The notes: generated by a model from the letters alone, not told the origin. Positions 369 through 52,674 are shown, counted from the whole stretch's first letter. The stretch: 58,784 bases of DNA, filler included, from Sphacelaria rigidula (GCA_964200075.2; 7 parts of 7 records of this genome joined end to end with filler, not necessarily neighbours in it), one strand, 5' to 3'. Numbers and translations are program-made.

Positions 369-3300
369 ATGATCACGCACCCTTGCTGCCGTTCCGATGG
401 CCACTTGCCTCTCCGCCTGAATGACGTTGAGCTGAGCAGGAGTGACAGAAATTGTGATGAGGATGACCTCAGCAGTGCCCTGTCCAAGCTTTCTGTTCGG
501 GAAACCTCAAGGCAGTCGGGTGCCACAGTCCCCACCTTGTCGGCTTCCACGTCAGCCGCAAGTGCAGTGGGAAGTGAACATTCCCATGGTGGAAATTTGG
601 TGCCTACGGCGAGTGTGGGTCACAGTGCGCTCAGCAGGGGTAGCAGCAGGTGCGACGATGATGATCTCACCAATGCTATGTCCAAGCTCTCCGTTAGAGA
701 ACCTCCTGGCCACTCGGGTGTGACAGTCCCCCCATTGGCAGCGTTCACATTCAATGGGAGTGCCGTCGCTGGCGAGCATGTCCGGGTTATGGAATCTGTG
801 GGAACGGCTGAGCCTATCCCGACGAGCTACAGCGAAATCGACGAATATCTTGAGGTGTGTGCTGGTCAGTCATATACCACTTCTCTTTGATTGTATACTT
901 GATAATTATGGTAGATGAGTGAAGTTTACATGCGTGACGTTTTGCATGTACTGCATAACGTGCTTGAAGGCCGGGCAATCGGGGCAAATGCGTTCTGCTG
1001 AGTCAGGACTTGTTGGAGGAAGTAAACAAGTGTGTTCAGCAGGCACTACTCTTCACAACCGTATTGCGTATCAAGTCTCAATGAAATTCCATAAACCATG
1101 GCAGCCCCTGCCGGCGGCGGCCTATGCTCACTTTCTGCCATTTGAACAAAAGACGCCCAACGTTGAGTTTATTTGGGGAATCACAGTAGCGCAGCATGTC
1201 GTTTGAGATCCCAAAGATAATGTCTAGCCAAAGGATGTTGGAAGGCTTCCTAGAACTGACGTGTGCAGGATGTCTAGGTCGGTATGAGGCTGATCAGAAA
1301 AGTGCCCCACTTTCAAATATCAGTGATTGATATGAGGATACTCCTCCCTCGTTTTATTTTTTGGCGTCAACTACAAGCCATCAGCCACGAATTCTCCCCC
1401 TATGCAACACGCTCGTGAACGTGACAACCTAGCCCTGAACATGCACCAAATACTAGGCAATGCAAGCGCACACCCAGCTTGAGTTTGAGGCGTCGGTCAA
1501 CCAAGGCTTCATCGTGGCAGAGCGTCAGAAGGACAACGGGTGGCTGAACGTGACTTGCAAACAGGAAGACGCGAATCACCATCCTGACCGTATGTCGTTT
1601 TACGTGGATGGCCGGAAGACAAACGGCATTGGCGCCGAAGAGAGCGGGCACAATTTCAAGACCGACCCCTGGACACGGCACGCCATCCAGTTCGCAGGAT
1701 TACCTGTCCCCGCACTTGTTGTGAAGTGCCGGAATGGCCCCAGCGACTACGAAGCATATCTCACCGTCGCCGGCACCGGCACCAACGGCCGTGGTGGTGT
1801 GCCGTTGCGTGACCAAGACCTTCAAACTCGGGTGCGATCTCTGGGTTACGTTGGATCCTTTCTTCGGGAATACAGCAGTGCTGCAGACCTGCTGGCTGGC
1901 GCGCGCAGCAGCCCCTTGCTTTCTGTTGTGACTGCCCCCGGACAGCATCAAGGTGAAGGAACCTTTGTTCCAGCGGATGATGCAGCAATCGACAGTTCCC
2001 GGGTCCCGCTGAACAGCACACAGCGTCGCGCTGTGACAAGCCTCAGCGGGGGTTTGGACATCATCATCGGGCCTCCAGGTGGAGTAGCACTAAACTTCAC
2101 CTTACACCCGTGAAATTCACGTGGTGTGTGACCCCTGAATCTCCTTGAAACGACTCAGAACCATAAATGGACCTTACTACATAACAAGCGAGTAGCGGCG
2201 CCCACGTCCTTCCCCGTTCAGTCTGCTAATATCATATATGCATCCGTTTTTGTTCTTGTCGTCACAAGGTACGGGCAAGTCTACAACGATATGGCACATC
2301 ATCAACTCCCGAGTCGCTCACGGTGCCCGCACGCTCGTGACGTGCACAAGAAACCAGGCTATAGATGCCGTGACGCGCAAAGTGGAGAGCTTTGGCGTGT
2401 TGGTGAGTTGGTGAGCCAGACGGTATGTAACATGTCCAACGGCCGTAGATGACGAGTACCCTGCCCAGCGTCCTGAAGATGTAATCTGTAAGAGTAATCC
2501 GTCGGCACGCCTGAACGATGCGTGACTCTGTAGTCATTGTTTCTCTGGTCATTTCCGCAGGCTGGCTATGGCGACTGTCAGAAACAGCAGACGCTTTTCA
2601 GTATTAAAGTCATTGCTCATCTGTGACTATATGTGTGGATGATGGAGTAGATTTGCTCAAATTTATCTGATGGCTGTATTTGGTCTCATCGTACAAGTGT
2701 GCCTCTTGAACTGGGGGTCATCTCTTGTAGTGGCGCCCAAGCGCTTGTTGGGTGCCCTTGAACGATAGCACACCCACGCACACGGTTCAGCGTGCTTTAC
2801 AACAAGCCTATGTTTCGCGTGATGTGCCACCTACCTGAATTGTCCACCTCTCATTCCAGGTGTTTGGAAGCGACATGCGTTTGGGCGAGTTCACCCGCGA
2901 GTTCACGATAGAGGGAAGGATGCGCAACGATCCTGAATTAGTGTTCTGGCGCCGGCAGGTTGAGTCTTGGAGCAAGGCATACAGCAACGCGATGGCCGTT
3001 TCGTGGACGAAGCTTCACCTTGCCTCCTTTCCCGGAATTCAGAAACTCCGGGATGTGCACAACAGTGGTGGCGCGGCTTGCACCTCCTCGAGCAGGGTAG
3101 ACCAAGCAGAGACGGAAAAGAAACGAAAAAGAGCGGCGGGCTTATGGATCGTCGCTCTCACTCACGTGCTGCACGAGGTGTACATGATTCGTCTGAAAAA
3201 TGGCACTAAAGAACAGCGACTCACCTATAAGCAGGCCTGTGCTTTCCAAAAATGGCGGCCGTTACTGAAAAGTGGGTTATCCAGGGCGGCAGCCATACTC

Positions 3301-6300
3301 GCGAGACTGGAAATTCTCACCCGCTACCGCATTTATGCGCAGACAAGGGTACTCCTTTGCACCGTGGATAGTAGCGAGCGAATGGTGCGAGAGATGGAGG
3401 AGGGCATGTTTGCTGCACGCCGTGCCGTCGGATCGGCAGCGGCTCTCTCGAGATCAAAAGAGCGCCTGAAAGTGGACACAGCTATCATGGATGAAGCGGC
3501 TTGCGTGCTTGAGACCGCGGTGCCCGTTATTCTCGCCCTAGGCGTGAACAATCTCACCTTGATTGGGGATCAACACCAACTGCAACCGTTTTCGCAGGTG
3601 CGGGCCGACGGTGGCAACAGCAACCATTCGAGGTCTCTTATGGAACGCGCCATCGACGCGGGAGCCGCAAGTCACTTTCTGGAGGTTCAATACAGGATGC
3701 ACCCGGCGATTTGTGAGGTGTGAGAACATTCATCGCCTTGGTGAGGTAACATGTGAAAACTGTTTGCCTTGCGCACTTGACTTGAGCCCTATAATCCGAT
3801 GGGGGTAGACAGCATTCGTTGTTCGTTTCCATCTGCGCAATCAGGCTTATTCATGTCGGGTATATGAGTTCTTGGGCGTGGTCCCCTCATAGATGTCAAT
3901 TGCTAAGCAGCCGAACGAGCTACAGCGATGTCCCCGCCGTCTTCTGTGCATGCTCTAGTTCACAGTAGAAATCCTCGTATCCTATCGTGTCACGTTTGCC
4001 GTGCCGCGGGCAGATGATATCGTCCACGTTCTACAAGGGAAAACTCATGACTGCCGCCGAGACAGCGAGTGTACGCCAAGCTCCCGCGCCGTTAAAATGG
4101 ATCAACGTCAGCGGAGGGGAAATGAAGCACCAAGGCCGGGTAAGCAGTAAGTATACCGACGCAAAGGGAGCGGGGGTCCCTCTAAATGGTTCGATTGGGG
4201 TAGTTGTGCCCAGTTGATCGTCAGGGAGCGAAAATATGTCGGCCTAATATTGGCCTTTTGTAAGCGTACACCACTGGTATACGGTGCGCCCAACCTGCTC
4301 CTTGGGAAACGGGTCCACCACGATACTCGAGGTTTGTTCGTTTCACCTCGCTGTGTCTTTGCGTTGCACCACTCTAGAATCCGGTCATGATTGTCATCAA
4401 CCACCGGGTCGTGATAACCGAGAACGCTTGAGACATTGCCGATGTTCATGACTCGGTCGCAGTAGAGACCCAGCTTCAGTCCTAGTGTCGTAATTTTTTC
4501 CTGTCGCGCCAGGTATCATGAGGATCCTGGAAAATGGGAACGGGATCTCTTTATTGGAACGAAGTCACGTCGAAATTCAAAAACAAATACCATTATATAC
4601 TACCGGTCAAGGGAACCTTCCGAGCCCCCTGCAGGTGCAACGGCTGCCTTGATCTTCTCTATTATATATGAATGTTGAAAAACTACGGTGGCCATCCGGC
4701 CATGTGTCGAAAATTGATTACCGCTCAATTGATCCACCGAAATACAAGCACAACACTCGATCGCCCACATTCGCAGCGGCAGCAGTACAGTGTAGTGTTC
4801 GTAGTACAACAATCAAACAGCGCGTCCACGCGTACAGTCCATCTGTATCGATTGACTGGGGTGGGTGATGCATCCACCCCAGTCAATATTTACGATTAGA
4901 TTGCCCTCACGGAGCTGTTGGAGCGTAGTTCGCTCTGTATTGTTTGGGGATAAATAATGCGACGCGTTGTCCTGGGTCAACGTGCTATTGAATATGCTAT
5001 ACTATCATTTTGCGTGACCCTAAAGTCTGATTCTTCTAGTAGTTCACATCCTCTCGATTACTGTTCCTAGTTTCTTACCCATCACAGAGATATTGATTTT
5101 TTCGCCTCATAAGAGATGAGTACCAGTTGCCAAGGAACGTTGCACACCCTGCACAAGAGATTATATTGTCAAAACGTGTACTGCGTACAGTATGGAATGT
5201 CCTGTATATTGCATTAGACGCGATGGTCGATACTGTACGCAGCACACTTTTGGACAACGTCATTTATTACCATTGTTCAGGGTGTCGAAGACTGCAAGCG
5301 CATTGTAAAAGCTCCCACAAGTTCTTTGTAGTTAGTTTTGCTCCTTACTGTTTTTCATTTCGTCATTTCGAAAGCAACATTGGGGTATACCGTTGTCTGT
5401 GGTGTGCTGTACAGACGGTAGTACTGTACGGTAGAGAGAAATCATCTCTATTGATACTGAATCGGCAAGGTCATTTTGATTTTAAATGTTGACTCGCGTG
5501 GAAACAACACCCACCCCAGTCAATCCAAAGAGGCCGTAAGCGTGGACCCGCTGTTTGACCATGTTATGCTGTGCACATTGCACTATACAAGCTGGGCCAG
5601 CCTAAAAACGGATTTAGGCTCTCGCAGCAATACCTCATCGACACAGGTAAATTGGGCCGTGATTCGCTCCTCTTTTTGATCGTGTAATGAAGGGGAAGAT
5701 GCCCATGCTCGAGAATCTGGGCAATTTCTTCTCGTTGATTGAATGCAATGACAAGTAATTCCTGTGGCGTACGGAGATACAATCCACACTAAGTCTAAAC
5801 GAAACCCATAACGAGATATACAGCTGATGATGGCAATGATTAATGTGGACATTCCCTGGAGCACGGGAAACGATCGATACCCTCATATTCACCTAATTCG
5901 TCATCTATCTCGAGATATGGCGCACTTCAGATTCCATACTAAACTCAAAGAGTTACGAGCAGAGGCACTGAATGCACTAAATTTGGATTCTGCGTCTCAG
6001 TTCTCGAGAGTTGTGGTTTGAAATTCGGTATGGGGGATCGCTAGGGCGTGATGAAAGAAACTTCAGCTCCTTCATTTTTTTTTTAATCTTTTGCCATTTT
6101 TTTTTCGTTTTTTAGGAACCTTGTGGCGGGAAATGGATATTGTTGTGGCCCTCACCTTATTTCTCAGTTCAATATTTTGAATTGTGATTTGAAATTGAGT
6201 ATGAAAGATCATGAGAGCATACTGAAAGAAAGAATGGAACTTAATTTCTTCGTTTGGTGAGTTACGGGCATAGTGCCCAAGTACCAAACCTAGGCCGTTA

Positions 6301-8313: not shown

Positions 8314-8413
8314 NNNNNNNNNNNNNNNNNNNNNNNNNNNNNNNNNNNNNNNNNNNNTTAATTAATTAANNNNNNNNNNNNNNNNNNNNNNNNNNNNNNN
8401 NNNNNNNNNNNNN
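8314..8413. other. Artificial contig linker (N44-TTAATTAATTAA-N44); also at 16726-16825, 25138-25237, 33550-33649, 41962-42061, 50374-50473
   Basis: Identical 100-bp spacers with stops in all six frames, recurring exactly every 8412 bp. Confidence 0.98.
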
Positions 8414-16460: not shown

Positions 16461-16825
16461 TCGAAGCATTCAGCGGATGGCGACGAATTTTGGTGTGGAG
16501 AACCGCAAAACAGTGCCGGATAAAAAAAAATGGGCCTTCCATTTTTTTATTTTTCCATAGAGGTTAGGGCATTTTCGTGAAATATGGTCTTTACAATAGT
16601 AAAACTCCCTAAATCAGTGGAAAAAATTGAAAAAAAATCAACCTGACCCACTTCTGTTTTTGTTGATTATGCCCTAGCCACGCCCCACATAAAGTTTCGA
16701 TACACAAACACCAAACGTGGGCCGGNNNNNNNNNNNNNNNNNNNNNNNNNNNNNNNNNNNNNNNNNNNNTTAATTAATTAANNNNNNNNNNNNNNNNNNN
16801 NNNNNNNNNNNNNNNNNNNNNNNNN

Positions 16826-19800
16826 TGCTGGTGTTCAGCTCGGGCACCAGCAGCTCCGGCAACACCGGCATGGTCCAGATCGGCAGCGGGGCGGCCACGT
16901 CCGGATCGGGCGGCGACGTGAGCTTGACGGTGGGCACGGGCGACCTGGCGACAGGCGGTGGGTTGACATTGTCGGGCGGTACGGGCGTGACAGGAGGCGT
17001 TGTATCACTGGCGGCCGGGATGGGAAGCACGGGTACCGGCGGCGAGGTGGCGATGGCTGCGGGCGTCGGATCGACGGGCGGGACGTTGGAAGTGGTGGCC
17101 GGCGAGGGGACGACGGCGTCCGGTGGGTCGGTGACGGTGACAGCGGGATTGGGAGCGACGGTGGGTGGAGCTGTGAGCATAGCGGCTGGGGCCGGTGTGG
17201 CAGATGGAGGAGGCGACGTGAGCGTTTCGGCCGGGTTGAGCTCGGCGGTCACCGGCGGCGACTTGACGATGGTGGCCGGCAGCGGCAGCACAGGCGGCGG
17301 CGCGGTGACAGTATCAAGCGGCGCCGTGACGAGCGGGAACAGCGGAACCATCACCATTAGTTCACCCCCAGCTGGTACCTCAGGAAACAGCGGCGCCATG
17401 ACCTTCAGTTCCGGGTCTACCACCATCGGGGACAGCGGAGATATCATGATCGGAAGCGGAGACGCTCTCGGCGGCTCCGGCGGACCGCTCAGCTTGACCG
17501 CCGGCGCCGGTGACACGGGTCAGGGCGGTCTCGTGCAAGTGACGGCCGGAGCGTCCACCGCTACAACGGCCGGCACCGGCGGGTCGGTGACGATCCTCAG
17601 CGGCGAGGGCACCGAGACCACCAGCGGGTCCGTGACGATCCGTTCGCCGAACGCCGGGACGGACGGCGTGAGCGGCGTGTTGGTGTTCAGCTCGGGCACC
17701 AGCAGCTCCGGCAATACCGGCATGGTCCAGATCGGCAGCGGGGCGGCCACGTCCGGGTCGGGCGGCGACGTGAGCTTGACGGTGGGCACGGGCAACCTGG
17801 CGACGGGCGGCGCGTTGACGTTGACGGGTGGCACGGGCGTGACGGGAGGCGCCGTGTCGCTGGCGGCCGGGACGGGAAGCACGGGCACCGGCGGGGAGGT
17901 GGCGATGGCGGCGGGCGTGGGGTCTCGGGCGGGTCGTTCGACGTGGTGGCGGGCGAGGGCACGACGGCTTCTGGCGGGTCGGTGACGGTGACAGCTGGAC
18001 TGGGAGCAACGGTGGGTGGGGCCGTGAGCATAGCGGCCGGGGCTGGTGGGGCTGATGAAGGAGGCGACGTGAGCGTGTCGGCCGGGGTGAGCTCGGCCGT
18101 CATGGGCGGCGACTTGACGATGGTGGCCGGCAGCGGCAGCACGGGTGGTGGTGCCGCATCGCTCGCCAGCGGGGCGGTGACGAGCGGCAACAGCGGAACC
18201 GTCACTATCACTTCCCCCGCAGCCGGCACGGCTGGAAATAGCGGAACCATGACCTTCAGCTCTGGGCCTACAACGGTTGGAGACAGCGGAGACATCATGA
18301 TCGGAAGCGGAAATGCTCTCGGCGGTTCGGGCGGGCTGCTGAGCTTGACCGTCGGCGCCGGTGACACGGGTCAGGGCGGTCTCGTGCAGCTGACGGCCGG
18401 AGCGTCCACCGCGGCCACGGCCGGCACGGGCGGGTCGGTGACGATCCTCAGCGGCGAGGGCACCGAGACCACCAGCGGGTCCGTGACGATCCGCTCGCCG
18501 AACGCCGGTACTGACGGCGTGAGCGGCGTGCTGGTGTTCAGCTCGGGCACCAGCAGCTCCGGCAACACCGGCATGGTCCAGATCGGCAGCGGCGCAGCTA
18601 CGTCGGGATCGGGCGGCGATGTGAGCTTGACGGTGGGCACGGGCGATCTGGCGACGGGCGGCGCGTTGACGTTGACGGGCGGTACGGGCGTGACGGGAGG
18701 CGCCGTATCGCTGGCGGCCGGGACGGGAAGCACGGGCACCGGGGGCGAGGTGGCGATGGCGGCGGGCTTTGGATCGACGGGCGGTGCGTTCGACGTGGTG
18801 GCCGGCGAGGGTGTGAGCGACGCAGGAGGATCCGTGAGTGTCGTTGCGGGGATGGGTGCAACGGCCGGGGGCGGCTTGACGATGGTGGCCGGCAGCGGCA
18901 GCGTGGGCGGCGGAGCCGTGTCGGTAGCAAGCGGAGCCGTGACCAGCGGAAACAGCGGAACCGTCACCATCACGTCGCCCCCAGCCGGTACCGCCGGAAA
19001 CAGCGGAACCGTGACCTTTAGCTCCGGCTCCACCACCGTAGGAGACAGCGGAGACATCATGATCGGAAGCGGGGCTGCCCTCGGCGGCTCCGGAGGTTTG
19101 TTGAGCTTGACGGTCGGCGCCGGCGACACGGGCCAGGGCGGTCTTGTCCGAATTACGGCCGGAGCGTCCACTGCGGCCACATCTGGCACGGGTGGGTCGG
19201 TGACCATGCTGAGCGGTGAAGGCACCGAGACCACCAGTGGGTCCGTGACGATACGCTCGCCGAACGCCGGTACGGACGGCGTGAGCGGCGTGCTGGTGTT
19301 CAGCTCGGGCACCAGCAGCTCCGGCAACACTGGTACGATTGAGATCGGCAGCGGGGCGGCCACGTCCGGATCGGGCGGCGACGTGAGCTTGGTGGTAGGC
19401 ACGGGTGACCTGGCGACGGGTGGTGCGTTGACGTTGACGGGCGGCACAGGCGTGACGGGAGGCGCCGTGTCGCTGGCGGCGGGGATGGGAAGCACGGGCA
19501 CTGGCGGCGACGTGGCTATGGCTGCGGGCGTCGGGTCTACAGGTGGCGTTTTTGACGTGTTGGCCGGTGAGGGCACGTCGGCCTCTGGCGGGTCGGTGAC
19601 GATGACGGCTGGACTGGGAGCGACGGTGGGTGGAGCTGTGAGCATAGCAGCCGGGATGGGCGTAGGAGGAGATGGTGGCGACGTGAGCGTGTCGGCCGGA
19701 GTGAGCTCGGCGGTCACAGGAGGCGACTTGACTATGGTAGCCGGCAGCGGCAGCACAGGGGGCGGGGCAGTGCTACTGTCCAGCGGAGCGGGCACTAGTG

Positions 19801-22800
19801 GAAACAGCGGGACTGTCACCATCACGTCTCCGACCGCCGGTACGGCCGGGAGTAGCGGCGTCATGACCTTCAGCTCCGGTTCTACCACTGTCGGTGACAG
19901 CGGAGACATCATGATCGGAAGCGGCACCGCCCTGGGTGGCTCCGGGGGACTGCTGAGCCTGACCGTTGGCGCAGGCGATACGGATCAGGGCGGTCTCGTT
20001 CGAATCACGGCCGGAGCGTCCACAGCAGCCACAGCCGGCACCGGTGGGTCGGTGACGATCCTCAGCGGCGAGGGTACCGAGACCACCAGCGGGTCCGTGA
20101 CGATCCGCTCGCCGAACGCCGGCACGGACGGCGTGAGTGGCTTGTTGGCGTTTACCACGGGAACCAGCAGCTCCGGCAACACTGGCACGGTTCAGATCGG
20201 CAGCGGCACAGCTACGTCGGGTTCGGGCGGCGACGTGAGCTTGACGGTGGGCACGGGCGACCTGGCGACGGGCGGCGCATTGACGTTGACGGGCGGCACG
20301 GGCGTGACGGGAGGCGCCGTATCGCTAGCGGCGGGGACAGGGAGTACGGGCACTGGCGGCGGGGTGGCGATGGCAGCGGGCATCGGTTCTACGGGTGGCA
20401 CATTCAATGTAGTCGCCGGCGAGGGTACATCGGCCTCTGGTGGACTGATGACGATTACGGCTGGACTAGGAGCAACGGTGGGTGGGGCTGTGAGCATAAT
20501 TGCCGGGGCCGGTGTTTCGGATGAGGGAGGCGATGTGATGATGTCTGCTGGCCTGAGTTCGGCTGTCACCGGTGGTGAACTGAACTTGATTGCCGGTAGC
20601 GGTAGTACGGGTGGGGGTGCAGTGGCCGTCACCAGTGGAGCCGTCACCAGCGGAAACAGCGGGACCGTCACCATCACTTCGCCCCCAGCTGGTGCCGCCG
20701 GACATAGCGGAACCATGACCTTCAGCTCCGGTTCCACCACCATAGGAGACAGCGGAGACATCATGATCGGGAGCGGGGCCGCCCTCGGCGGCTCCGGAGG
20801 TTTGCTTAGCTTGACGGTTGGCGCCGGCGACACCGGCCAGGGCGGTCTTGTCCAAATCACCGCCGGAGCGTCCACCGCGGCCACGACCAGCACGGGCGGG
20901 TCGGTGACGATCCTCAGCGGCGAGGGCACAGAGACTACCAGCGGGTCCGTGACGATACGCTCGCCGAACGCCGGGACGGACGGCGTGAGCGGCGTGCTGG
21001 TGTTCAGCTCGGGCACCAGCAGCTCGGGAAACACCGGCATGGTCCAGATCGGCAGCGGAGCAGCTACGTCCGGGTCGGGCGGCGATGTGAGCTTGACGGT
21101 GGGCACGGGCGACCTGGCGACGGGCGGCGCATTGACGTTGACGGGCGGTACGGGCGTGACGGGAGGCGCCGTGTCGCTGGCGGCCGGGACGGGAAGCACG
21201 GGCACAGGGGGCAAGGTGACGATGATGGCGGGCGTCGGGTCGATGGGCGGCGCGTTCGACGTGGTGGCCGGCGAGGGTACATCGGCCTCTGGTGGATCGG
21301 TCGCCATTACCGCGGGGGAAGGTTCGACATCAGGTGGAGGTCTCTCTTTCACTGCGGGGGACGGTGGAACGAGTGGTGGTGCGGTTTCCTTGACGGCGGG
21401 TGCTGTAACGAGCGGCAACAGTGGGACCGTCACTATCACGTCGCCGGCAGCCGGTACGGTAGGGAACAGCGGAACCATGACATTCAGCTCCGGATCCACC
21501 ACCATCGGAGACAGCGGAGACATCATGATCGGCAGCGGGACCGCCCTCGGCGGCTCCGGTGGAATGCTCAGCTTGACCGTCGGCACCGGCGACACGAGCC
21601 AGGGCGGTGAAGTGCAGTTGATGGCCGGATCGTCCACCGCGGCCACGACCGGCACCGGCGGTTCGGTGACGATCCTCAGCGGCGAGGGAACAGAGACCAC
21701 CAGCGGGTCCGTGACGATCCGCTCGCCGAACGCCGGCATTGACGGAGTGAGCGGCGTGCTGGTGTTCAGCTCGGGCACCAGCAGCTCCGGCAACACCGGC
21801 ATGGTCCAGATCGGCAGCGGTGCAGCCACGTCCGGTTCGGGCGGCGACGTGAGCTTGACGGTGGGCACGGGAGACCTAGCGACGGGCGGCGCGTTGACGT
21901 TGACGGGCGGCACGGGCGTGACGGGAGGCGACGTTTCGCTGGCGGCCGGGACGGGAAGCACGGGCACCGGGGGCGAGGTGGCGATGGCTGCGGGCGTCGG
22001 GTCGACGGGCGGGTTGTTCAACGTGGTAGCCGGCGAGGGTACATCGGCCTCCGGCGGGTCGGTAGCAGTGACAGCGGGACAGGGAGCGACGGTGGGTGGG
22101 TCTGTGAGCATAACCGGCGGGATCGGTGTGGCTGGGGGAGGAGGCGACGTGAGCGTATCAGCCGGGACAAGTTCCACGGTATCGGGAGGTGACTTGACGA
22201 TGGTAGCCGGCAGCGGCAGCACGGGCGGCGGTGCATTGACCCTTTCCAGCGGAGCTGTGACGAGCGGGAACAGCGGGACCGTCATCATTACGTCACCTCC
22301 AGCCGGGACGGCCGGAAATAGCGGCATCATGACCTTCAGCTCCGGCTCCACCACCGTAGGAGACAGCGGAGACGTCATGATCGGAAGCGGCGCCGCCCTT
22401 GGCGGCTCGGGCGGTGCACTGAGCTTGACGGTCGGCACAGGTGACACGGGCCAGGGCGGTGCAGTGCAGGTGACGGCCGGAGCGTCCACCGCGGCTACGG
22501 CCGGTACCGGCGGGTCGGTGACGATCCTCAGCGGCGAGGGCACAGAGACCACCAGCGGGTCCGTGACGATACGATCGCCGAACGCCGGCACGAACGGCGT
22601 GAGCGGCGTGCTGGTGTTCAGCTCGGGCACCAGCAGCTCCGGCAACACCGGTACGATTGAGATCGGCAGCGGAGCAGCTACGTCGGGTTCGGGCGGTGAT
22701 GTGAGCTTGACGGTGGGCACCGGCGACCTGGCGACGGGCGGCGCGTTGACGTTGACGGGCGGCACGGGCGTGACGGGAGGCGCCGTGTCGCTGGCGGCCG

Positions 22801-25137
22801 GGACGGGAAGCACGGGCACTGGCGGTGAGGTGGCGATGGCTGCGGGCGTCGGGTCGACGGGCGGTGCGTTCGACGTGGTGGCCGGCGAGGGCACGACGGC
22901 CTTCGGCGGGTCGGTGACGATGACTGCTGGACTGGGAGCGACGGTGGGGGGGGCTGTGAGCATAGCGGCCGGAGCTGGTGTGGCGGATGAAGGAGGCGAC
23001 GTGAGCGTATCGGCCGGATTGAGTTCGGCCGTTACGGGAGGAGACTTGACGATGGTGGCCGGCAGCGGCAGCACGGGCGGCGGCGCCGTATCGGTCGCCA
23101 GCGGAGCCGTGACCAGCGGCAACAGCGGAACCGTCACCATCACGTCGCCCCCAGCCGGTACCGCCGGAAATAGCGGAACCATGACCTTCAGCTCCGGATC
23201 CACCACCGTAGGAGACAGCGGAGACATCATGATCGGAAGCGGAGACGCTCCCGGCGGCTCCGGCGGACTGCTAAGCTTGACCGTCGGCGCCGGCGATACC
23301 GGCCGGGGCGGCCTTGTCCAAATCACCGCCGGAGCGTCCACCGCGGCCACAGCCGGTACCGGCGGGTCGGTGACGATCCTCAGCGGCGAGGGCACAGAGA
23401 CCACCAGCGGGTCCGTGACGATCCGCTCGCCGAACGCCGGGACGGACGGCGTGAGCGGCGTGCTGGTGTTCAGCTCGGGCACCAGCAGCTCGGGAAACAC
23501 CGGCATGGTCCAGATCGGCAGCGGTGCGGCCACGTCTGGGTCGGGCGGCGACGTGAGCTTGACGGTGGGCACGGGCGATCTGGCGACGGGCGGCGCGTTG
23601 ACGTTGACGGGCGGCACGGGCGTGACGGGAGGCGCCGTGTCGCTGGCGGCCGGGACGGGAAGCACGGGCACCGGCGGTGAGGTGGCGATGGCTGCGAGCG
23701 TCGGGTCGACGGGCGGTGCGTTCGACGTGGTGGCCGGCGAGGGCACGTCGGCCTCCGGCGGGTCGGTGACGATTTCTGCCGGCGATGGTGCCACAGTGGG
23801 TGGTGAATTATCTTTCGCAGCTGGGTCCGGGGGTACGGGTGGTGGTGCCGTGGCCTTGACCAGCGGGACCACGACCAGCGGCAACAGCGGGACCGTCACC
23901 ATCACGTCGCCCCCAGCCGGTACCGCCGGAAATAGCGGAACCATGACCTTCAGCTCCGGATCCACCACCGTAGGAGACAGCGGAGACATCATGATCGGAA
24001 GCGGAGACGCTCTCGGCGGCTCGGGCGGGCTGCTCAGCTTGACCGTCGGCGCCGGCGATACCGGCCAGGGCGGCCTTGTCCAAATCACCGCCGGAGCGTC
24101 CACCGCGGCCACGACCGGTACCGGCGGGTCGGTGACGATCCTCAGCGGCGAGGGCACAGAGACCACCAGCGGGTCCGTGACGATCCGCTCGCCGAACGCC
24201 GGGACGGACGGCGTGAGCGGCGTGCTGGTGTTCAGCTCGGGCACCAGCAGCTCCGGCAACACCGGCATGGTCCAGATCGGCAGCGGGGCGGCCACGTCTG
24301 GGTCGGGCGGCGACGTGAGCTTGACGGTGGGCACCAGTACATTCACCACAGGAGGTGAACTCACTCTATCGTCGGGTACAGGAAACACGGGGGGTCCCGT
24401 CAACATGGCTGCGGGTACAGGCGTAGCAGGAACGGGTGGAGCTGTGACGGTGGTCGCTGGGGACGCGGCCACGGGCGGGGCGGTTAGTGTTGCTGCTGGA
24501 GACGGGACATCTGGCACTGGCGGGGCAATGACGCTTCAAGCTGGGGTAGGATCTACGTCGGGTGGAGCATTGAGCATCGCAGCGGGAGCTGGAACAGCGA
24601 ATAGCGGAGGCTCGTTGAGTATGGAGGCCGGCTCCGGTGCTGAGACCGGTGGGAGCGTGAGTATCGTCGCCGGTACCGGAGGCTCCGGGGTGGGAGGAGA
24701 CATGAGCGTATCAGCCGGGGTGAGCTCAACTGTGATCGGCGGTGACTTGACGATGGTGGCCGGCAGCGGCAGCACGGGCGGCGGTGCAGTATCTGTGACC
24801 AGCGGAGCCGTGACCAGCGGCAACAGCGGGACCGTCACCATCACGTCGCCCCCAGCCGGTACCGCCGGAAATAGCGGCATCATGACCTTCAGCTCCGGAT
24901 CCACCACCGTAGGAGACAGCGGAGACATCATGATCGGAAGCGGAGACGCCCTCGGCGGCTCCGGCGGGCTGCTAAGCTTGACCGTCGGCGCTGGCGATAC
25001 CGGCCAGGGCGGCCTTGTCCAAATCACCGCCGGAGCGTCCACCGCGGCCACGACCGGTACCGGCGGGTCGGTGACGATCCTCAGCGGCGAGGGCACAGAG
25101 ACCACCAGCGGGTCCGTGACGATCCGCTCGCCGAACG
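16826..25137 (+). CDS. Giant Gly/Ser/Thr/Ala/Val-rich tandem-repeat protein, probable extracellular beta-solenoid; partial at both ends; 1-nt frameshift at 17925/17926
   Basis: Open reading across the whole 8312-bp contig (ORFs 16831-17985 and 17943-end). GC-rich third positions, with many synonymous differences between repeats. Rung consensus G-x-[VLM]-x-[ILV]-x-[AS]-G. Blocks of 284, 254 and 313 aa. Confidence 0.9.
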
Positions 25138-25237
25138 NNNNNNNNNNNNNNNNNNNNNNNNNNNNNNNNNNNNNNNNNNNNTTAATTAATTAANNNNNNN
25201 NNNNNNNNNNNNNNNNNNNNNNNNNNNNNNNNNNNNN

Positions 25238-25378
25238 AAAGGGATGCGTGGTCAATGGTCACACGACTAAGGCAAGCAACAAATGAGTATGCCCCCCCCC
25301 CTCCCCCCCCCTTGAAAGTCATGCGTGTTCGATTGTCACACGACTAAGGCAAGCAACAAATGAGGACGCCCCCCCCCA
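25238..25378 (-). repeat. Two tandem copies of the short G-run/GTACTCAT element
   Basis: Reverse complement of GGGGCGTACTCATTTGTTGCTTGCCTTAGTCGT, present twice. Same motif at 15070-15192, 33650, 41174-41240 and 41713-41790. Confidence 0.8.
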
Positions 25379-27229
25379 TCCGTCATATACTCAATTGTTC
25401 CTCTTCGTCGGGACGAGTATATAGCCTCAAGGACTTATCGGGCGGTCTCCTGATCTATCAACACAGCGGACATTGAAACGACAATATTCACATGATTACT
25501 ACCGCGCACTCATATCTCCGCCTCATGCTGCCGGCAGAAAGGACTACCGTAGACAGCTAAACATTCACGACGCAAACAGGCGACCGATAGGACGACGATG
25601 ATACACGGAAGGTTGACTCTCAATACTGCACGAGGCAGGCGTTGTTAGCTTCTCGCAGTGTATTTTCGTGTCTGCAATACTATAGAGTAGGTCGATTCTG
25701 GAGCTTGATGCACATCCCTAGTAAGCCGGCAGCGGAGCACACCCGTTTTGCCCATACCATCCATATCCTACTCATTTTCATATCCATATATGTGTGGAGG
25801 CTATCATCGCATATGTGCGGAGTGATTACTTCTGTGACATGGCCGTTACAGAATCAGGTGGAACTATGGAGTGTTCGAGAGACCCCAAACTCCCATGTCT
25901 GTACAGCCGAGTTCTAGGGCCCTAGGCCACAGGATCTCGTCGGTGGAAGGGTTCAACATATCAAGAGTCACCGCCGAGCCCTGGAAGTCACAAGCCACTC
26001 TGTACACGGAGGAGGTCGGCTCAGCAGCCTACCACCCGACCACGGTCAATCCTTGCTTCAAAGTCAAGGAATAAAGTCACACCTCACCTTGCGCACCACA
26101 CCGCTCCACATACGAGGTGCTTTATATCGTGTGATCTTACGATGCTTCGTCTGTGCCGCGTATGAAAGTTTTTTTTTTGCGGGGTGCAAATCCTATCTCA
26201 TCGGGAGGTCTTCACAAAGGCCTTGGACTATCTAGCATCAAGTCCCACTGATGGTAAGAACGACCTATTTTTTTCATATTTTCCTCCCCGGAAAAATAGG
26301 CGAACTATCGCCATTTTCGGGCCAGCTGTTTTATTTTCGGCCGTCGGCTCATGCAAGGTAATGCGCAAACAAACAAAATATGGAACTCGAAAAATGACGA
26401 AGATTTCAATCAAATTTCCGCCTGAGGCACGGGCACGTTCAAGGGTCCGTATAAGCGCAAAATAATTTACTCATGACATCAAGGGAGTATATATATTTCA
26501 CACGTCGGACAGATCAGCTCGTGACAGATCTGGGTCAGCTCATTAGAGGTATAGATTGTGATCTGTCCGCGGTGTGCTGTCACGCGTGCACGTTTGTCCG
26601 GTGGTGATCTGTAGGGCCCGCGTGACCCGTACATATTTGCCGGCCGACGATCTGTAGGACCAGCTTCACACACACACACTTTCGAGCACAACTGGTCTGC
26701 AGAACTGTGTCATCTGTACAACATCACATGATTGTCATTTATATAACTTGGCTCAGGCAAGCACCGCAGCTTGACGTCGACCCGCGCGATTTGAATCTCC
26801 TGTATACCAAAAGCTACCCCTCACCCGTGGAACCCCAAAGCTAGTATACAATAAACAGTTTCCCGCACCCATAAGATCCGGATCAAGTGTACAAGGAACA
26901 GTATTAAATATTTACCTTCACCTGCTAACCTGTATGGCCCGGGTACAATGCATGTTGACGAGTACGTAGGTTGACTGTACCAGCAGTCACATGGAACATG
27001 AGGTATGTATATGTATATTTATTCCGAGTCGTTCCACGGTAGGAGTGCACATTTTTTCTGAAGGTATGCACTGTCGGAGCACCCCTTGCAAATATACAGT
27101 AAACGGTATTCTGTGTTTCTCGCCTACTAATTTTCATGGCCCGGGTACAATGTGCATGTTCACAAGTCCGTAGGTTGCAGGTTGACTGTAACAGCCCGGC
27201 ATATGGGACATGACGTACGTATATTTATT

Positions 27230-32724: not shown

Positions 32725-33861
32725 ACGCACATGTTATCTTGTATATACAAATACGGCGAACAAATCCACGAATATAGCAATAAAGTGACGCCTGGTTGGA
32801 GCAGTACTGCAAATTAAATGTCAAGTATCATCCTCTCGGCCGTGTGTTTTCATATTAATACCTCAATGTACGTTTATTAAAATAATTGCACTCACATAGA
32901 TACTGTTGCGCATGGAACTCTCCACGATAAGTCGCTCGCAGAGAAGACAACCAAGGCAAACAATTCAAGATGTGAATAAACGGTCCATGAGTAGGATGAT
33001 GACGATACTGAGAAGTGATGTGATAATACTGCACGAGCTAGGCGTTAGCGTTTTGCGGAATATTCTTTTCTGTTATTCAACATATACGTATGTATATATA
33101 TATATATATATATATGCTCGTGTACGAGGTGAACGAGATCGACACGTTTTACACGAGGTCGTGAAGCCACCGCACCCCGGTGGTCTAAATTAAAGTCAAA
33201 CGACTGAAATCAGGTGGGGCGGAAGAACGCGAATGCGAATCCCGGCAAACGCCTTATTTTGCCCCTCTCAGAGGAATCTGCTGTCAGCCATTGAAACATG
33301 AGGACGTGAGTTACAAAGCACCTTGTTCGACGACAGTCGACTGGGTGCGGTCGTGCTGTGCTGATCTAATATGCGACACCAAAATGTGTGGCGCGTACCG
33401 ATGGAGAGATGGATTGATCCCTCAAGACCACGGATTCGTCCAGAGGGGGGCGCACGCGACGGGGGGGGGGGGGGGGGGGGGGGGTGAAAAAAAAGGGCAC
33501 TCCCCATGGGGGGGAGACGGAATCCCTGTGGAACAGGGGGGCCGCCTGTNNNNNNNNNNNNNNNNNNNNNNNNNNNNNNNNNNNNNNNNNNNNTTAATTA
33601 ATTAANNNNNNNNNNNNNNNNNNNNNNNNNNNNNNNNNNNNNNNNNNNNTGTTGCTTGCCTTAGTCGTTCGACCATTGACCACGCATCCCTTTCGAGACG
33701 GAGCACGGGTAGGGGGGGGGGAGAGATACAACAGGGTACGTCTACTTAGGAGGCATGGCTCCATCGAGATGTCTGATGCGACCCTCAAGAAGTCCAACGC
33801 GTCGACGCAGCAGACTCTTGTCATCGTCGACCTACCCGCACTATTACTATTACTATTGCTA

Positions 33862-36329: not shown

Positions 36330-37500
36330 AGTTCCCTAGCATGGAGTTGTTTGGCCCAGGCTGCCATGTACATGTTGGCCCCCTGCTCCACGACTCGGGA
36401 CCATTCGGACACATCTTGGGCAACCGGCGTCCACGATGTCGCGTTTATTCTGAAGGAAGAATAGTTTTCCCGTGACAGTGCTGTAGGCGTTTTGCTGGTC
36501 GGCCTGCCTCCGTCTTCCCTCCGACCATCACCTCACGCATGGCAATGTTGGGGAGGCGTTCATCGTGCATGCGCACAACACGGCGGGCGTGCAGGAGGAT
36601 TCGTAGCATCACGGTGGCCTTGATCGACACGCAGCTAGTTCTTTCGCGGACCTCGTAGTATGGCGGCATTTATTAGTTGGGGGTGGTGCGGTTCAATGTA
36701 TGCCCGTTGAGGCACCTCGGTAAGAAGCCGCGATGGGCCTCCCGAAACGCGCCGAAATTGTCGTGAGCGATCTCCCAGGCCACGCGTCCGTATAGCATTA
36801 CCTCGATCACTTCAGTCTTCAGGAGACCAGCCTTGGTGGCCAGGGCGATATACGAGTTGTTGTATACCGCTCGGCTGTACTTGTGGAAGCACGTCTAGGC
36901 CTAGCCAATGCGGCTGTGGATCCCAGCAGTGACATCGCAGATGCTGCTGATTTTCCCGCCAAGGTAAAGGGAACTGAACGCTCAGCTTTCTTGTATCTTT
37001 GGCCCGCCGCCTCCACCTTGACCACATGAGGCTCCATCTTCGAGGAACGCATGTGCATGGTGACTGCTGTCTTCTTTTCCGCCACGACGAGGCCGAATGC
37101 CGCACACACTTCGATGATGGCCGTCATCATCTTTGCCAGAATTACTTGAGACTGCGAGGCGATGCCAGCCTTGTCGGTGTATAGCATAACCCGAAGCATT
37201 TCGCTGAGTTCGTCCCTGGTCTTCCCGCCCCTTCCAGCAATGCGGATGAAATCCTGCGCCACCGCTTTATTGGTCAAGAAGCGGTCGAACGTCACCGTCA
37301 GCCCCGCCGCGAAAAATGTGTTGACCAATCCGGAGGAAAACACGCAGCCCTGGCCGAGGCCCTGGTTAACGTAAAATCATCAGATGTCTCGCCGCCGTCA
37401 AGGCACACGCATGCTGGCATGCCGTCGTGGAACTGGCGGATGATGGGAGTCATCTTGGCGGAGATTCCGTTGCGTGCTAGAACTTCCCAGAGAAGAGCAT
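36330..37500 (-). mobile_element. Degenerate, 5'-truncated non-LTR retrotransposon (RTE-like) reverse transcriptase
   Basis: Minus-strand pieces LWEVLARNGI..IIRQFHDGM, VNQGLGQGCVFS..LVNTFF (GxxQG motif), MLYTDKAGI (decayed YADD), FGLVVAEKKT and VVRMHDERLP..GRP. Frameshifts present. Confidence 0.85.
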
Positions 37501-41619: not shown

Positions 41620-42608
41620 GTGAGTACCGTGCGGTATCTTGACAATACTGTGCTGTAGTGCCAGGAGAGAGATAGGGTTGATATCTTTGAGACCACTGAC
41701 TCGTTCGGAGAAGGGGGGGGGGGCGTCGTACTCATTTGTTGCTTGTCTTGGTCGTTTGACCATTGACCACGCGTCCCTTTCGAGACGGAGGAATTTGAAG
41801 CGTGACGATACAAAAAAGAAAAGGAGGACGACAAATTAATATCACGGGAAGAAGAAAACGGGCATTCTATTTGAAAGGCGTCCTTCGAGAAGGAGGGAGG
41901 GAGGAGGGGTGTACTCATGATCATGCTTGCCATAGTCATAAGACCATTGACCTCGCATCCCNNNNNNNNNNNNNNNNNNNNNNNNNNNNNNNNNNNNNNN
42001 NNNNNTTAATTAATTAANNNNNNNNNNNNNNNNNNNNNNNNNNNNNNNNNNNNNNNNNNNNGCGTGGCCGCCGCACCCCTTCTGCCCGTCCGTCTCCCCC
42101 TTGCGGTCTCTGTGGGCGCACTAGCCGGGGTCACACACGAGTTTTTTTTTTTCTATTTGTTTTTAGTGCCCCACCTTCCTTCTGCGGTGTTTGCCTTTAC
42201 TTTTTTTTCGTGAGAGGGGTACAGCAGTCCCTTTCCCTCGTCGACCGTTAAGTCGAATTTTGTGTACCCACGACATAGTCGTTCTCGACTGTTGGGCATG
42301 GTGTGAGAAAAAATCCCAGATCACTCAAAGATTTAAACTCACGACCCAACCGTCGGAATGTTTCGAGGTTACCAACTGAGCCACTGGGGCGACCGGCTAT
42401 GCGCTGTGCACATATAATATTCGGGAGAGGAGGGGCAGCTCGACGCAACTCAGCAATGGTTGACACACACTTTGCTTTTTTCGCAACTAACGCTAGCGCT
42501 ACCGCCAACCCAAGGCAGTCCGACAGTCCTCGGGAAGACACGCACATGGGAGTTTCGTACGCAAACACACACACACACACAAACATTAGCTAGAGCCGTA
42601 TCCCCCAC

Positions 42609-50157: not shown

Positions 50158-52674
50158 TCAAAAGTGTTTTGCGAGAAATAACGTCAAGGAAAAATCCGCT
50201 AAAAGAAAAACAAACACGCCGCCGTTGGTAGCTGTGATCCCGTACACGCGCCTGCAAGGGGCGGCACGAAGTGCGCAAACCGCACAGAAGTAGGCAATAC
50301 AGCCTCGTGACGAGGTTAGTGGGGGGGGGGGGGGGGGGGGGTGAGGCCCAGTGCACAAGCAACCCTTTACAGGNNNNNNNNNNNNNNNNNNNNNNNNNNN
50401 NNNNNNNNNNNNNNNNNTTAATTAATTAANNNNNNNNNNNNNNNNNNNNNNNNNNNNNNNNNNNNNNNNNNNNATACGAAGATTTCAATTCTCCGGGTTT
50501 CTCATCCCCAATAAAAGGCCCATCCCCAATTTGTAAGATCCCGTCTTTCGGGCTGTTTGCGCAGATACAACAGCAGATCACAGCATCACGAAGCAGTTCG
50601 TTGCTCGTGGCAATAGACCGTGTGGTTGGAACCAAGACTGTATGTTGTAATCAAGTCACGCGTCGGATAGCCCCTTCATATATGTCCCGCTTGACCATTT
50701 TTACAGTCGGTATATTCATTTATTCGTGTTTATGAATGCTGCTGCTGCATTCCGGGAGAGACCACGAGGTGTTTGTCAGTCAGGTGACCTCGGGTAATCA
50801 TCGCTGTTAGAAACAAATGTTGCTGATGACGGTGATCCCTCAAGTACAGTACTTCCTCTGTGCCATAAGTATAGTATTTTACGGGTTGCAGATAGTTTTT
50901 CCCCAACGAAGATGCTCACGATGCTTCAGTCAGGCTTGTTGAAAGAAAAATTGTGCTTCTCATTAAAAAATGAAAACGATTCAAATTTTTTTTACTGAGA
51001 AAATTGGGCTCGAAATTTGGAGATTTTCGGGGGGTCAATGTGGAACGTACCGGGCTATCGGCGCGGCAGAGGGCAGGAACGTTGGAAAGGGTGGTAAAAT
51101 ACGATCAGGAAGCCTTCACTAAGGCCCGAGGCTACCTAGCATCAAGTTCCAGTGATGGCGAGGACGGTTGACTTTTACTTTTATGCGCCCCCCCCCCCCC
51201 CCCGGAATGAAGGTGGCATGAAATCGTTTGATGCATCAGACAGTGGCGAAAAAACGATGGTTATTCTAGGAAATAGATGGCCACACACGCCGAAACAGGA
51301 CGGGGATAAGATATGACGATAATGGCTATTGGCAGATTGTATGCCAAACCTATTGATGACGGCAATCGCTATTGATCAGTGTTGCACCAAAAGAAAAAAA
51401 AACATTTTTCGGAACAGAATTTGACCCGTTTTCCCCCTACTGCGCACTGCTGCAACGCGCAGCACCAGGAATAGTGATGTGGAACCGTTGACTGTGGTTC
51501 TCATAACATATGGTCGAAGTGACAGCACCTTTCAGCGTCTACAGCGCGCGTAGGGGCGTGCATCATGAACTGCGCACATCTGCAGACAAAATGCCGATCG
51601 GTACACTGCCGAATGGTCGTGGTCCAGAAAGGACCGCAGTGCAGAGCGGTGTCAGTTTGCTACAATGTCGGCCGCCCAGCCGCTCAGCATGGTAAAGTTA
51701 GTGGACGTGCGAGTACATGTATGCATTCATCTCTAGTACGCGGAGTCTGGACTGCGGGATAGCCGCTTTGAGGGCGCATCGACGGCATTCCCCGAAAGTG
51801 CTTGTGGCCATGTCAGTAATTTGTGCGGGGCTCAATCGTGCGGGCGCTTGGCGCATGTGTTGCCTGTGTTGTGTCCGACTCGTGCGCACAGTTTTATGAG
51901 GAAACACAAAGTCGCAGGCGACAAATCTACAACGAAAGTTGCTCTGAAAATTGGAAGTTCAACGTATTGGGAAGTATCCAAATAAACACGAGATTCGGTT
52001 ACGCTCTGGATACGCCGCATGTCAGATGTGCTCACACAGTATTACGGTACTGTCAAATGCAGCACAACCAGTACAGACAGTACCTTGCATCAGCATTATA
52101 TTGCACTTTATAATGGTCGAGACAGGAGTGCCCAAGAAAAAACCTCCGAGACCCTATGTACCCTCTCCCCCCCCTCTGGCGGTCGTAGGATCTTTTTGTT
52201 TTTTCACGTTAAGAAACACTCAATAATAGCCATTTTGGGGCGACTCAGGTGAGGTAGCGCCTATGGTTATTGGCCCTATCTGCCACCACAAGATGCGATG
52301 CAAATTGGACGCAAATTGGCGGTGCACATAGATGCGTTTAGCTTGATTGAGCAAGCATTGCAGGGCATTGCTGTATTTGTCGTGGAAGTGTGATGTGCAA
52401 TGTATAGCCGAAACTCACAAATATAACTTGGCCTTATTTGGCTCCGAAGGCATGCGAAGAATTAAAGCTTCATTGATCGGCAAAGGTACATTGACTTACA
52501 TTGGCTCTGCGTTATCGACGTCATGTTTGGTAGATCGGCACCTGAATTACTGAGAAGCCAACAACGACTTGGAACAAAGCCAAAACTGCCCCTTTCATAA
52601 GCTATCATTCCCATGCCAGCGTTTTCGCGGCCGGGGCTCCCGGCTTCTCCTGCTTTTTTTACGCTGGAGCCTGT

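Follow-up and report, generated by a model that had tools for sequence, protein, structure and literature searches.

We describe a very long repeat gene, part of which fills the third of the seven pieces of DNA joined in a 58,784-base stretch (hereafter, the window) from the alga Sphacelaria rigidula (GCA_964200075.2). Piece 3 (16826-25137, + strand, 8312 nt) is coding throughout, as its reading frames, the ratio of nonsynonymous to synonymous substitution rates (dN/dS) between its internal repeats and its homologues all indicate, and it is a cut part of a very long stramenopile alga gene, holding about 2770 codons and specifying at least 2770 residues in about 185 rungs of about 15 amino acids (aa). 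By sequence its product is a member of an unnamed protein family, here called the NAGxxGVSG-module family, whose large and apparently secreted proteins are widespread in algae and protists. With a probability that we put at roughly 0.5, the protein is a secreted homotrimeric shaft resembling the tail fibres of phages.

Repeat architecture and coding status of piece 3

The window consists of seven pieces of 8312 nt (give or take one) separated by six artificial, non-genomic spacers of 100 nt each (8314-8413, 16726-16825, 25138-25237, 33550-33649, 41962-42061 and 50374-50473), every one of them composed of N44, TTAATTAATTAA and N44. The repeat array coincides exactly with piece 3, lying between the unstranded spacers that join piece 2 to piece 3 (16726-16825) and piece 3 to piece 4 (25138-25237); it starts mid-module (..LVFSSG) and stops mid-module (VTIRSPN), so that both ends are cuts and not assembly ends. 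Nothing in the window supports linkage of piece 3 to the other six pieces. As the window is a concatenation, arguments from neighbouring genes across the spacers are invalid, and this applies to the remark in an earlier annotation made from the sequence (the first-pass annotation) that an exon of more than 8 kb is unusual beside short-exon genes, which compares unlinked DNA across artificial spacers.

At the smallest scale, the full-length (L) block can be divided into 19 rungs, each 13-18 aa long, as previously proposed, with 15 aa the commonest length (84 of 150 parsed rungs) and autocorrelation peaks at lag 15 for both hydrophobic residues (0.37) and glycine (0.36). The rung consensus, G-x-V-[ST]-[ILV]-x-[SAV]-G plus seven mostly Gly/Ser/Thr residues, shows G1, V3 (61%), S/T4, I/L/V5, S/A/V7 and G8 (93%) ahead of a Gly/Ser/Thr-rich tail, the percentages at positions 1, 3, 5 and 8 being inflated by construction because these positions belonged to the search pattern. 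Across 2211 in-frame residues the composition is 27.2% G, 15.6% T, 15.0% S, 11.3% A and 9.4% V (57.8% for Gly, Ser and Thr combined), with Lys and His close to zero and, as had been noticed before, no Cys, Trp or Tyr whatsoever.

Rungs are organized into modules, and a five-rung module whose core reads S-G-x-V-x-I-x-[ST]-x-N-A-G-x-x-G-V-S-G occurs twice in each block. The within-block duplication suspected earlier is borne out by the alignment of these two modules, A and B, which are identical at 39 of 70 positions without a gap (E 1e-14). Module A, exemplified by 23406-23615 (+; SGSVTIRSPNAG..GVSG.., five rungs), is conserved family-wide, and module B, exemplified by 23124-23333 (+; SGTVTITSPPAG.., five rungs), is an older internal copy of A.

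Modules are in turn carried by ten blocks of 254 (S), 284 (L) or 313 (XL) aa, delimited by the Arg codon of a recurring VTIRSPN marker, which we find at all ten positions reported previously: 17641 in frame 3 of the piece, and 18492, 19254, 20106, 20958, 21720, 22572, 23424, 24186 and 25125 in frame 2. The spacings likewise agree, giving block lengths of 815 (partial), 851, 762, 852, 852, 762, 852, 852, 762 and 939 nt. On the + strand, these correspond to B0 (16826-17640, partial L, 815 nt), B1 (17641-18491, L, 851 nt owing to a missing base), B2 (18492-19253, S, 254 aa), B3 (19254-20105, L, 284 aa), B4 (20106-20957, L, 284 aa), B5 (20958-21719, S, 254 aa), B6 (21720-22571, L, 284 aa), B7 (22572-23423, L, 284 aa and 19 rungs, the target of our first AlphaFold model), B8 (23424-24185, S, 254 aa) and B9 (24186-25124, XL, 313 aa). 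Identity between blocks ranges from 77 to 91% in DNA and from 78 to 91% in protein. The block alignment also upholds the claim that rungs are gained and lost in pairs: S blocks are 30 aa shorter and the XL block 29 aa longer at one and the same site, a hot spot of rung number at which the two rungs (30 aa) missing from S blocks occupy 22947-23036 (+) in B7, and at which two extra rungs (29 aa) are inserted at 24600-24686 (+) in the XL block.

Thus, of the four-level hierarchy described in the first-pass annotation, the rungs, modules and blocks stand, while the 2466-nt L-L-S super-repeat is found as a length pattern only. Self-identity is indeed highest at a lag of 2466 nt (0.672, vs. 0.58 at a lag of 852 and a median of 29%), as expected, since no other lag leaves every block in register. 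The tree of blocks that had been proposed as a check shows no L1/L2/S clustering, and the 822-aa super-repeat thus finds no support as a unit of duplication: by maximum likelihood the ten blocks form a star in which only B5 and B8, both of them S blocks, group together (support 100/98). Clades by slot are rejected for L2 (p-AU 0.006), borderline for L1 (0.057) and not rejected for S (0.13), and among 84 informative two-state sites, 0-1 favour any slot grouping and 7 favour B5 with B8. Judging from these sequences, either the spread of the blocks was roughly simultaneous or they have since been mixed by gene conversion. By our own count, a strict period of three arises in 3 of the 84 possible arrangements of three S blocks among nine, which is suggestive but not strong.

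The reading frame does not run through piece 3 as the single uninterrupted exon that had been described: as assembled, there are two open reading frames, 16828-17982 and 17514-25136, amounting to an open frame of 7.6 kb plus 1.1 kb ahead of a missing base. The block alignment places this base in B1 (17924-17926, +), where GGGTC-TCGGGC at about 17925 faces GGGTC[GT]ACGGGC in the other nine blocks, and its absence accounts for the 851-nt spacing as well as for the frameshift. In three public short-read runs of two studies (X1, X2 and X3), the contigs have one more A behind 17925, this insertion accounting for depths of 21.3/21.3, 176.2/207.4 and 173.6/173.6 respectively, which makes an error of assembly the probable cause of the break; the short-read contigs on piece 3 are at most 565 nt long, and about half of them fit two repeat places. 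Selection on the frame was estimated from 28 pairs among blocks B2-B9, leaving out B0 (cut) and B1 (frameshift), and yielded a median dN/dS of 0.17 at a median dS of 0.52. Piece 3 is thus a real protein-coding gene under purifying selection, and since its copies are old and held by that selection, an artefact of collapsed repeats is excluded.

Contigs from three runs cover 30 of 30 bins of piece 3, and of the 451 contigs in X1, 227 are alike at 99% or more. As no contig spans a whole block, the order of the blocks is taken from the assembly. Some contigs contain joints that skip 1421-5180 nt with sides of about 30 nt, which we read as repeat-induced joins and not as shorter alleles. Contigs of X1-X3 also diverge into unlike sequence at 21079, 21111, 22616, 22655 and 23099, two of these flanks being found in two runs each (X1 and X3 for the first, X1 and X2 for the second), a hint that the organism carries additional members of the family or differently flanked copies. 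None of the runs with matching reads is listed as RNA; one run (X8, for which the label RNA is a guess) gave 3 contigs on 23100-24924 that are 90-99% alike, none reaching 99%, and that could come from a paralogue. On the opposite strand we observe an open frame of 1447 codons (20192-24535, -) plus several of 180-750 codons; we read these as by-products of a GC-rich, stop-poor repeat, with homology and dN/dS backing the + frame.

An unnamed protein family and its domain company

An HMMER search run exhaustively against 1.84 billion representatives, with one 822-aa super-repeat as query, retrieved 670 representative clusters with E ≤ 1e-3, of which 121 reach ≤ 1e-10 and 3 reach ≤ 1e-30. Among relatives with a named source, the two best are P0156 and P0003. 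P0156 (CAMPEP_0182854040, 3798 aa, E 3e-112) comes from a transcriptome of Nephroselmis pyriformis, so expression is shown for one family member at least; it is 34% identical over 99% of the query and combines a start that looks by eye like a signal peptide with about 850 non-repeat residues and then many copies of the module. P0003 is an unnamed product of Ectocarpus sp. CCAP 1310/34 (1158 aa, E 1e-102) which looks like a broken gene model, and the identity of these two proteins to the query is 34% across 89-99% of its length. Reversed and shuffled queries retrieved 0 of 159 relatives at E ≤ 1e-3 (best 13.9 bits), and the similarity is accordingly not mere composition.

What the relatives have in common is a roughly 70-aa module, S-G-x-V-x-I-x-[ST]-x-N-A-G-x-x-G-V-S-G-x-L-x-F-S-x-G.., with 24 invariant columns and no gap in an alignment of piece 3 with six relative fragments. 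This module is common to P0003, P0156, P0017 and P0009, the spacing of its later glycines is matched in P0156, and it stays gap-free over 46 positions from green alga to stramenopile. Its signature N[AS][GA]xxG[VI]SG occurs once per block in piece 3 and in 76 of the 159 relatives in hand. The earlier failure to assign the protein to a named family holds, as a model of the module is lacking from Pfam, NCBIfam and PHROGs alike: NCBIfam gave no match for the piece 3 protein, and PHROGs none for this protein, P0003 or P0008. Searches of PDB by sequence with the protein, the module profile and P0156 found nothing real, the only hit being a composition-type match to TbRib26b at 0.0085. Recognition in the ESM Atlas was low (815), and its nearest clusters are unnamed, with one labelled as a Peptidase S74 fragment and one from diatoms, all of which we regard as leads only. 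In the literature searched, to which subscription journals are mostly external, we found no paper describing this repeat family in brown or other algae.

A Pfam assignment to GAF_3 (PF13492) was considered and rejected: it reaches 37.1 bits over 2211 aa (gathering threshold 27) by summing over repeats a part-match to profile positions 54-103 of about 129, which appears once per super-repeat and has E 0.053 in one super-repeat. Spanning 18492-25124 (+), it is a trap for automatic annotation of this repeat family.

Scans for related loci with a single-block query found none in 2.9 million viral contigs, in metagenome contigs, or in one genome each of 185,579 prokaryote species, all of these scans detecting close relatives only, and tblastn against phage records, with the low-complexity filter on, gave no match.

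We scanned the 159 relatives in hand (30 + 6 + 123) for further domains. Peptidase_S74 (PF13884) is present in 15 of them (8 of 30, 2 of 6 and 5 of 123), and according to the portion of PMC12220804 consulted, which cites Schwarzer 2007, this domain drives trimerization and then cleaves itself off. Teneurin-type EGF domains open three relatives (P0017, P0020 and P0022), Kringle domains occur in one (P0041), and the distant relative P0161 has the N-terminal domain of the phage T7 tail fibre. By eye, P0017 runs from a signal peptide through EGF, short repeats, four modules and more repeats to S74 and a coiled coil, and the C-terminus of P0036 consists of a coiled coil and a hydrophobic anchor. 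Judged by sequence, such domain company is that of secreted, cell-surface, trimer-forming proteins. We also observed serial arrangements, with two [repeats-S74] units in tandem in P0145 and three S74 stretches in P0010, which could be self-cutting polyproteins that make several fibres, or merged tandem gene models.

S74 has been found with other repeats in viruses of algae. In fibres of polinton-like viruses (PLVs), the consulted portion of PMC12220804 lists laminin G, collagen, adenovirus fibre and phage tail repeats as its partners, and the same portion reports no sighting of S74 genes in the PLVs of ochrophytes. The parts consulted of other sources mention a Heterosigma virus gene that combines S74 with an FhaB-type domain (PMC13659346), genomic islands of giant viruses enriched in adhesin-type genes including S74 (PMC13620141), and a prasinovirus hypervariable region with S74 and FhaB-like right-handed beta-helices (bioRxiv 10.1101/2025.08.15.670463).

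Predicted fold and the nature of the protein

The first-pass annotation had offered a beta-solenoid or a trimeric fibre and proposed AlphaFold and Foldseek as checks. An AlphaFold2 monomer of block B7 from a 77-row alignment had a mean predicted local distance difference test score (pLDDT) of 64.2 and a predicted template modelling score (pTM) of 0.46, with almost no strands by DSSP. A second monomer of 164 aa (23124-23615, comprising module B, two rungs and module A; 60 rows) reached pLDDT 74.6 and pTM 0.59; all of its residues score 50 or more, and DSSP assigns it no secondary structure. Stacked strands were thus not obtained and Foldseek came back empty; weak neighbours were found by a second structural aligner run against 48,161 PDB chains, which gave Z ≥ 2 for 5 chains with the B7 model and 4 with the 164-aa model. 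Both lists are headed by streptococcal phage tail-fibre hyaluronate lyases, namely 2c3f (Z 2.8, then 4.0 for the 164-aa model, with root-mean-square deviation 4.4 and 136 of 164 residues aligned), 6wv2 (Z 2.5, then 3.9) and 2wb3 (Z 2.5, then 2.4), and also hold the Streptomyces hyaluronidase 4ufq (Z 2.3, then 3.0), these four being all that the 164-aa model retrieved; the EtpA adhesin (8vba) had Z 2.5 for the B7 model and was gone for the 164-aa model. We treat these weak model-based matches to HylP-type proteins as a lead, not proof. In BFVD, the top three matches are uncharacterized proteins of uncultured tailed phages (E 1.7e-3 to 1.3e-2), with a YadA-like phage protein only at E 4.7. A three-copy complex prediction of B7 scored 0.00 in two runs and counts neither way.

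HylP1 folds as a triple-stranded beta-helix, and any one of its chains taken singly lacks a ladder partner. A fairly confident monomer model without DSSP strands is explicable on this basis, and of the two folds offered earlier the evidence leans to the trimeric one, a self-contained monomeric solenoid having found no stacked strands in either model. From these models and from the domain company of the relatives, we infer secretion, trimerization, fold and role for the piece 3 protein as follows. Three chains would wind into a triple-stranded shaft of the beta-helix type, much like a phage tail fibre, in which two aliphatic residues per rung would point into the core and Ser, Thr and Gly would cover the surface; the fibre would be located at the cell surface or in the extracellular matrix, and its length would be set by the number of rungs.

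Several results weigh against such a trimeric shaft. The B7 model is poor, with 75 residues under pLDDT 50 (residues 170-284 score 70-86), Foldseek against PDB returned 0 matches for both models, and every Z from the second aligner is below 5, in a tool for which a best Z of 7-8 is typical even without a clear match. In piece 3, which has neither gene end, we see no signal peptide, anchor or S74, and Pfam finds no S74 in the 2576 aa (2211 + 365) examined, both gene ends lying outside the piece. S74 is lacking in 144 of the 159 relatives; these are mostly short fragments, but the long P0012, P0156, P0157 and P0158 are among them. It precedes the repeats in P0026, P0104, P0110, P0135, P0153, P0159 and P0160, so an order of shaft and then chaperone is not always valid. 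Finally, with no close relative in viral or metagenome contigs or in phage records, these give no gene context.

Other explanations must be set against the same evidence. Regular 15-aa rungs that hold aliphatics of inward type at their third and fifth positions and have Gly in the turns would also suit a monomeric beta-solenoid, in which each rung forms one coil in the manner of FhaB/TpsA, the YadA head or ice-binding proteins and the whole serves as an adhesin or as a binder of ice or polysaccharide; EtpA among the neighbours of the first model fits this as well, as do the FhaB-like beta-helices beside S74 in algal giant viruses, as far as the consulted portions of the reports go (PMC13659346; bioRxiv 10.1101/2025.08.15.670463). 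We nevertheless consider the solenoid unlikely, since neither monomer model, both of middling confidence, shows stacked strands even at pLDDT 70-86, EtpA did not recur for the better model, Pfam searched with the whole translation at E up to 10 contains no match to Fil_haemagg, to the pectate-lyase-like Beta_helix, to ice-binding families or to Hep_Hag, the profile of the 14-residue YadA-head repeat, and one hydrophobic strand per 15 residues would be few for a closed single-chain coil. Less probable again is a disordered, mucin-like Gly/Ser/Thr-rich spacer, presumably heavily O-glycosylated and with no fixed fold. The share of Gly, Ser and Thr (57.8%), the missing Trp, Tyr and Cys, the 75 low-scoring residues of the first model and the lack of DSSP structure agree with it, but it sits badly with a strict 15-aa period with conserved aliphatic positions, with a dN/dS of 0.17, with a module that is gap-free over 46 positions from green alga to stramenopile, and with a second model in which every residue reaches at least pLDDT 50 and pTM is 0.59; we hold this explanation to be quite improbable.

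The base composition bears instead on where the gene comes from. Piece 3 has 69% GC, vs. 48-51% in the other six pieces, and is intron-free, both of which would suit a fibre gene of a giant virus or PLV that was integrated or co-sequenced, and would equally fit a high-GC bacterium living on the alga. The high GC can be ascribed largely to amino-acid make-up, as Gly, Ala, Ser, Thr and Val codons dominate (GC at codon positions 1, 2 and 3 is 59, 71 and 77%), and an exon of a helicase in piece 1 already has 64% GC at third positions. A viral derivation draws further support from the presence of fibre and adhesin genes with S74 in giant viruses of algae and in PLVs (consulted portions of PMC12220804, PMC13659346, PMC13620141 and bioRxiv 10.1101/2025.08.15.670463) and from the phage T7 tail-fibre domain of P0161; set against this are the empty scans of the 2.9 million viral contigs (for close relatives), phage records and PHROGs, the cellular extracellular domains (EGF and Kringle) of the relatives, and the statement, in the consulted portion of PMC12220804, that S74 genes were not seen in ochrophyte PLVs. 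On this balance a viral origin is improbable. A bacterial contaminant, for which one may also cite a run with matching reads that is labelled 'algae metagenome', is very improbable: the best relatives are eukaryotic (Ectocarpus, Nephroselmis and the EGF/Kringle carriers), the scan of one genome each of 185,579 prokaryote species, sensitive to close relatives, and NCBIfam were empty, and pieces 1 and 3 both match the same Ectocarpus strain first.

If the piece 3 protein is indeed a secreted trimeric shaft, a broader proposal can be framed, which we consider possible yet rather doubtful: that algal nuclear genomes encode their own S74-chaperoned three-chain beta-helix fibres of phage-tail-fibre type, reaching tens of nm or beyond, with a 15-aa rung and a five-rung module unnamed in databases as their building units, tuned in length two rungs at a time at one hot spot per block, and drawn from a pool of fibre parts shared with giant viruses and PLVs. 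These would constitute a new class of eukaryotic extracellular-matrix or adhesion fibre. The protein parts of brown-algal extracellular matrices are poorly known, and a large, conserved, widespread secreted family of tail-fibre-like proteins would, if real, introduce a structural element new to the surface of algal cells; besides being a structural family without a solved member, it would link cellular genes to the fast-varying fibre and adhesin genes of algal viruses. Under the fibre reading, the paired-rung changes in length would amount to a simple natural test of how such shafts keep register.

Elsewhere in the window, the piece 1 exon mentioned above (2839-3720, +) is part of an Upf1/Sen1-like helicase (AAA_11 + AAA_12) whose first match is a protein of Ectocarpus sp. 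CCAP 1310/34 (54% identity, E 1e-102), the strain that is also the first match for the piece 3 repeat. By these matches the window appears to derive from a stramenopile alga that has Ectocarpus among its relatives without being close to it. An open reading frame at 36822-37376 (-) has a weak RVT_1 match (E 3.9e-4, under the Pfam cut-off) and could be the remains of a retroelement. Near the beginning of piece 4 (25258-25380), a word of about 30 nt (..GTCACACGACTAAGGCAAGCAACAAATGAG..) occurs twice, with a C-run after each copy.

Comparison with known fibres

HylP-type fibres (2c3f) resemble the piece 3 protein in being a weak structural match to both models, the model chain being long and extended with no ladder within the chain. 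They differ in showing no sequence similarity, with 8-16% of residues identical when aligned by structure and nothing real from searches of PDB by sequence, and in that piece 3, from a eukaryotic alga, has no lyase domain, a shaft many times longer and a 15-aa Gly-rich rung. The adenovirus fibre shaft is a trimeric triple beta-spiral with a 15-residue pseudo-repeat and a conserved Gly/Pro turn. Its repeat length is that of piece 3, but it has no Pfam match here at E up to 10 and is absent from the structural neighbours, and piece 3 has one hydrophobic strand per rung, not two.

The K1F endosialidase and the T5 L-shaped tail fibre end in a Peptidase_S74 intramolecular chaperone. Fibre proteins of polinton-like and giant viruses of algae also bear S74, according to the consulted portions of PMC12220804 and PMC13659346, and the point in common with the piece 3 protein is that 15 of its 159 relatives bear S74. 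A difference is that the repeats given for PLV fibres in the consulted portion of PMC12220804 do not include the module that stands beside S74 here, and some relatives have a membrane anchor instead, or S74 ahead of the repeats.

A further comparison is with P0003 and P0156. The pattern of 254-, 284- and 313-aa blocks is not visible by eye in either, and P0156 differs further from piece 3 in containing Cys, Trp, Tyr and Lys and in its N-terminal part of about 850 non-repeat residues. All three proteins are nonetheless alike in their Gly/Ser/Thr-rich rungs and in carrying the same five-rung module with N-A-G-x-x-G-V-S-G.

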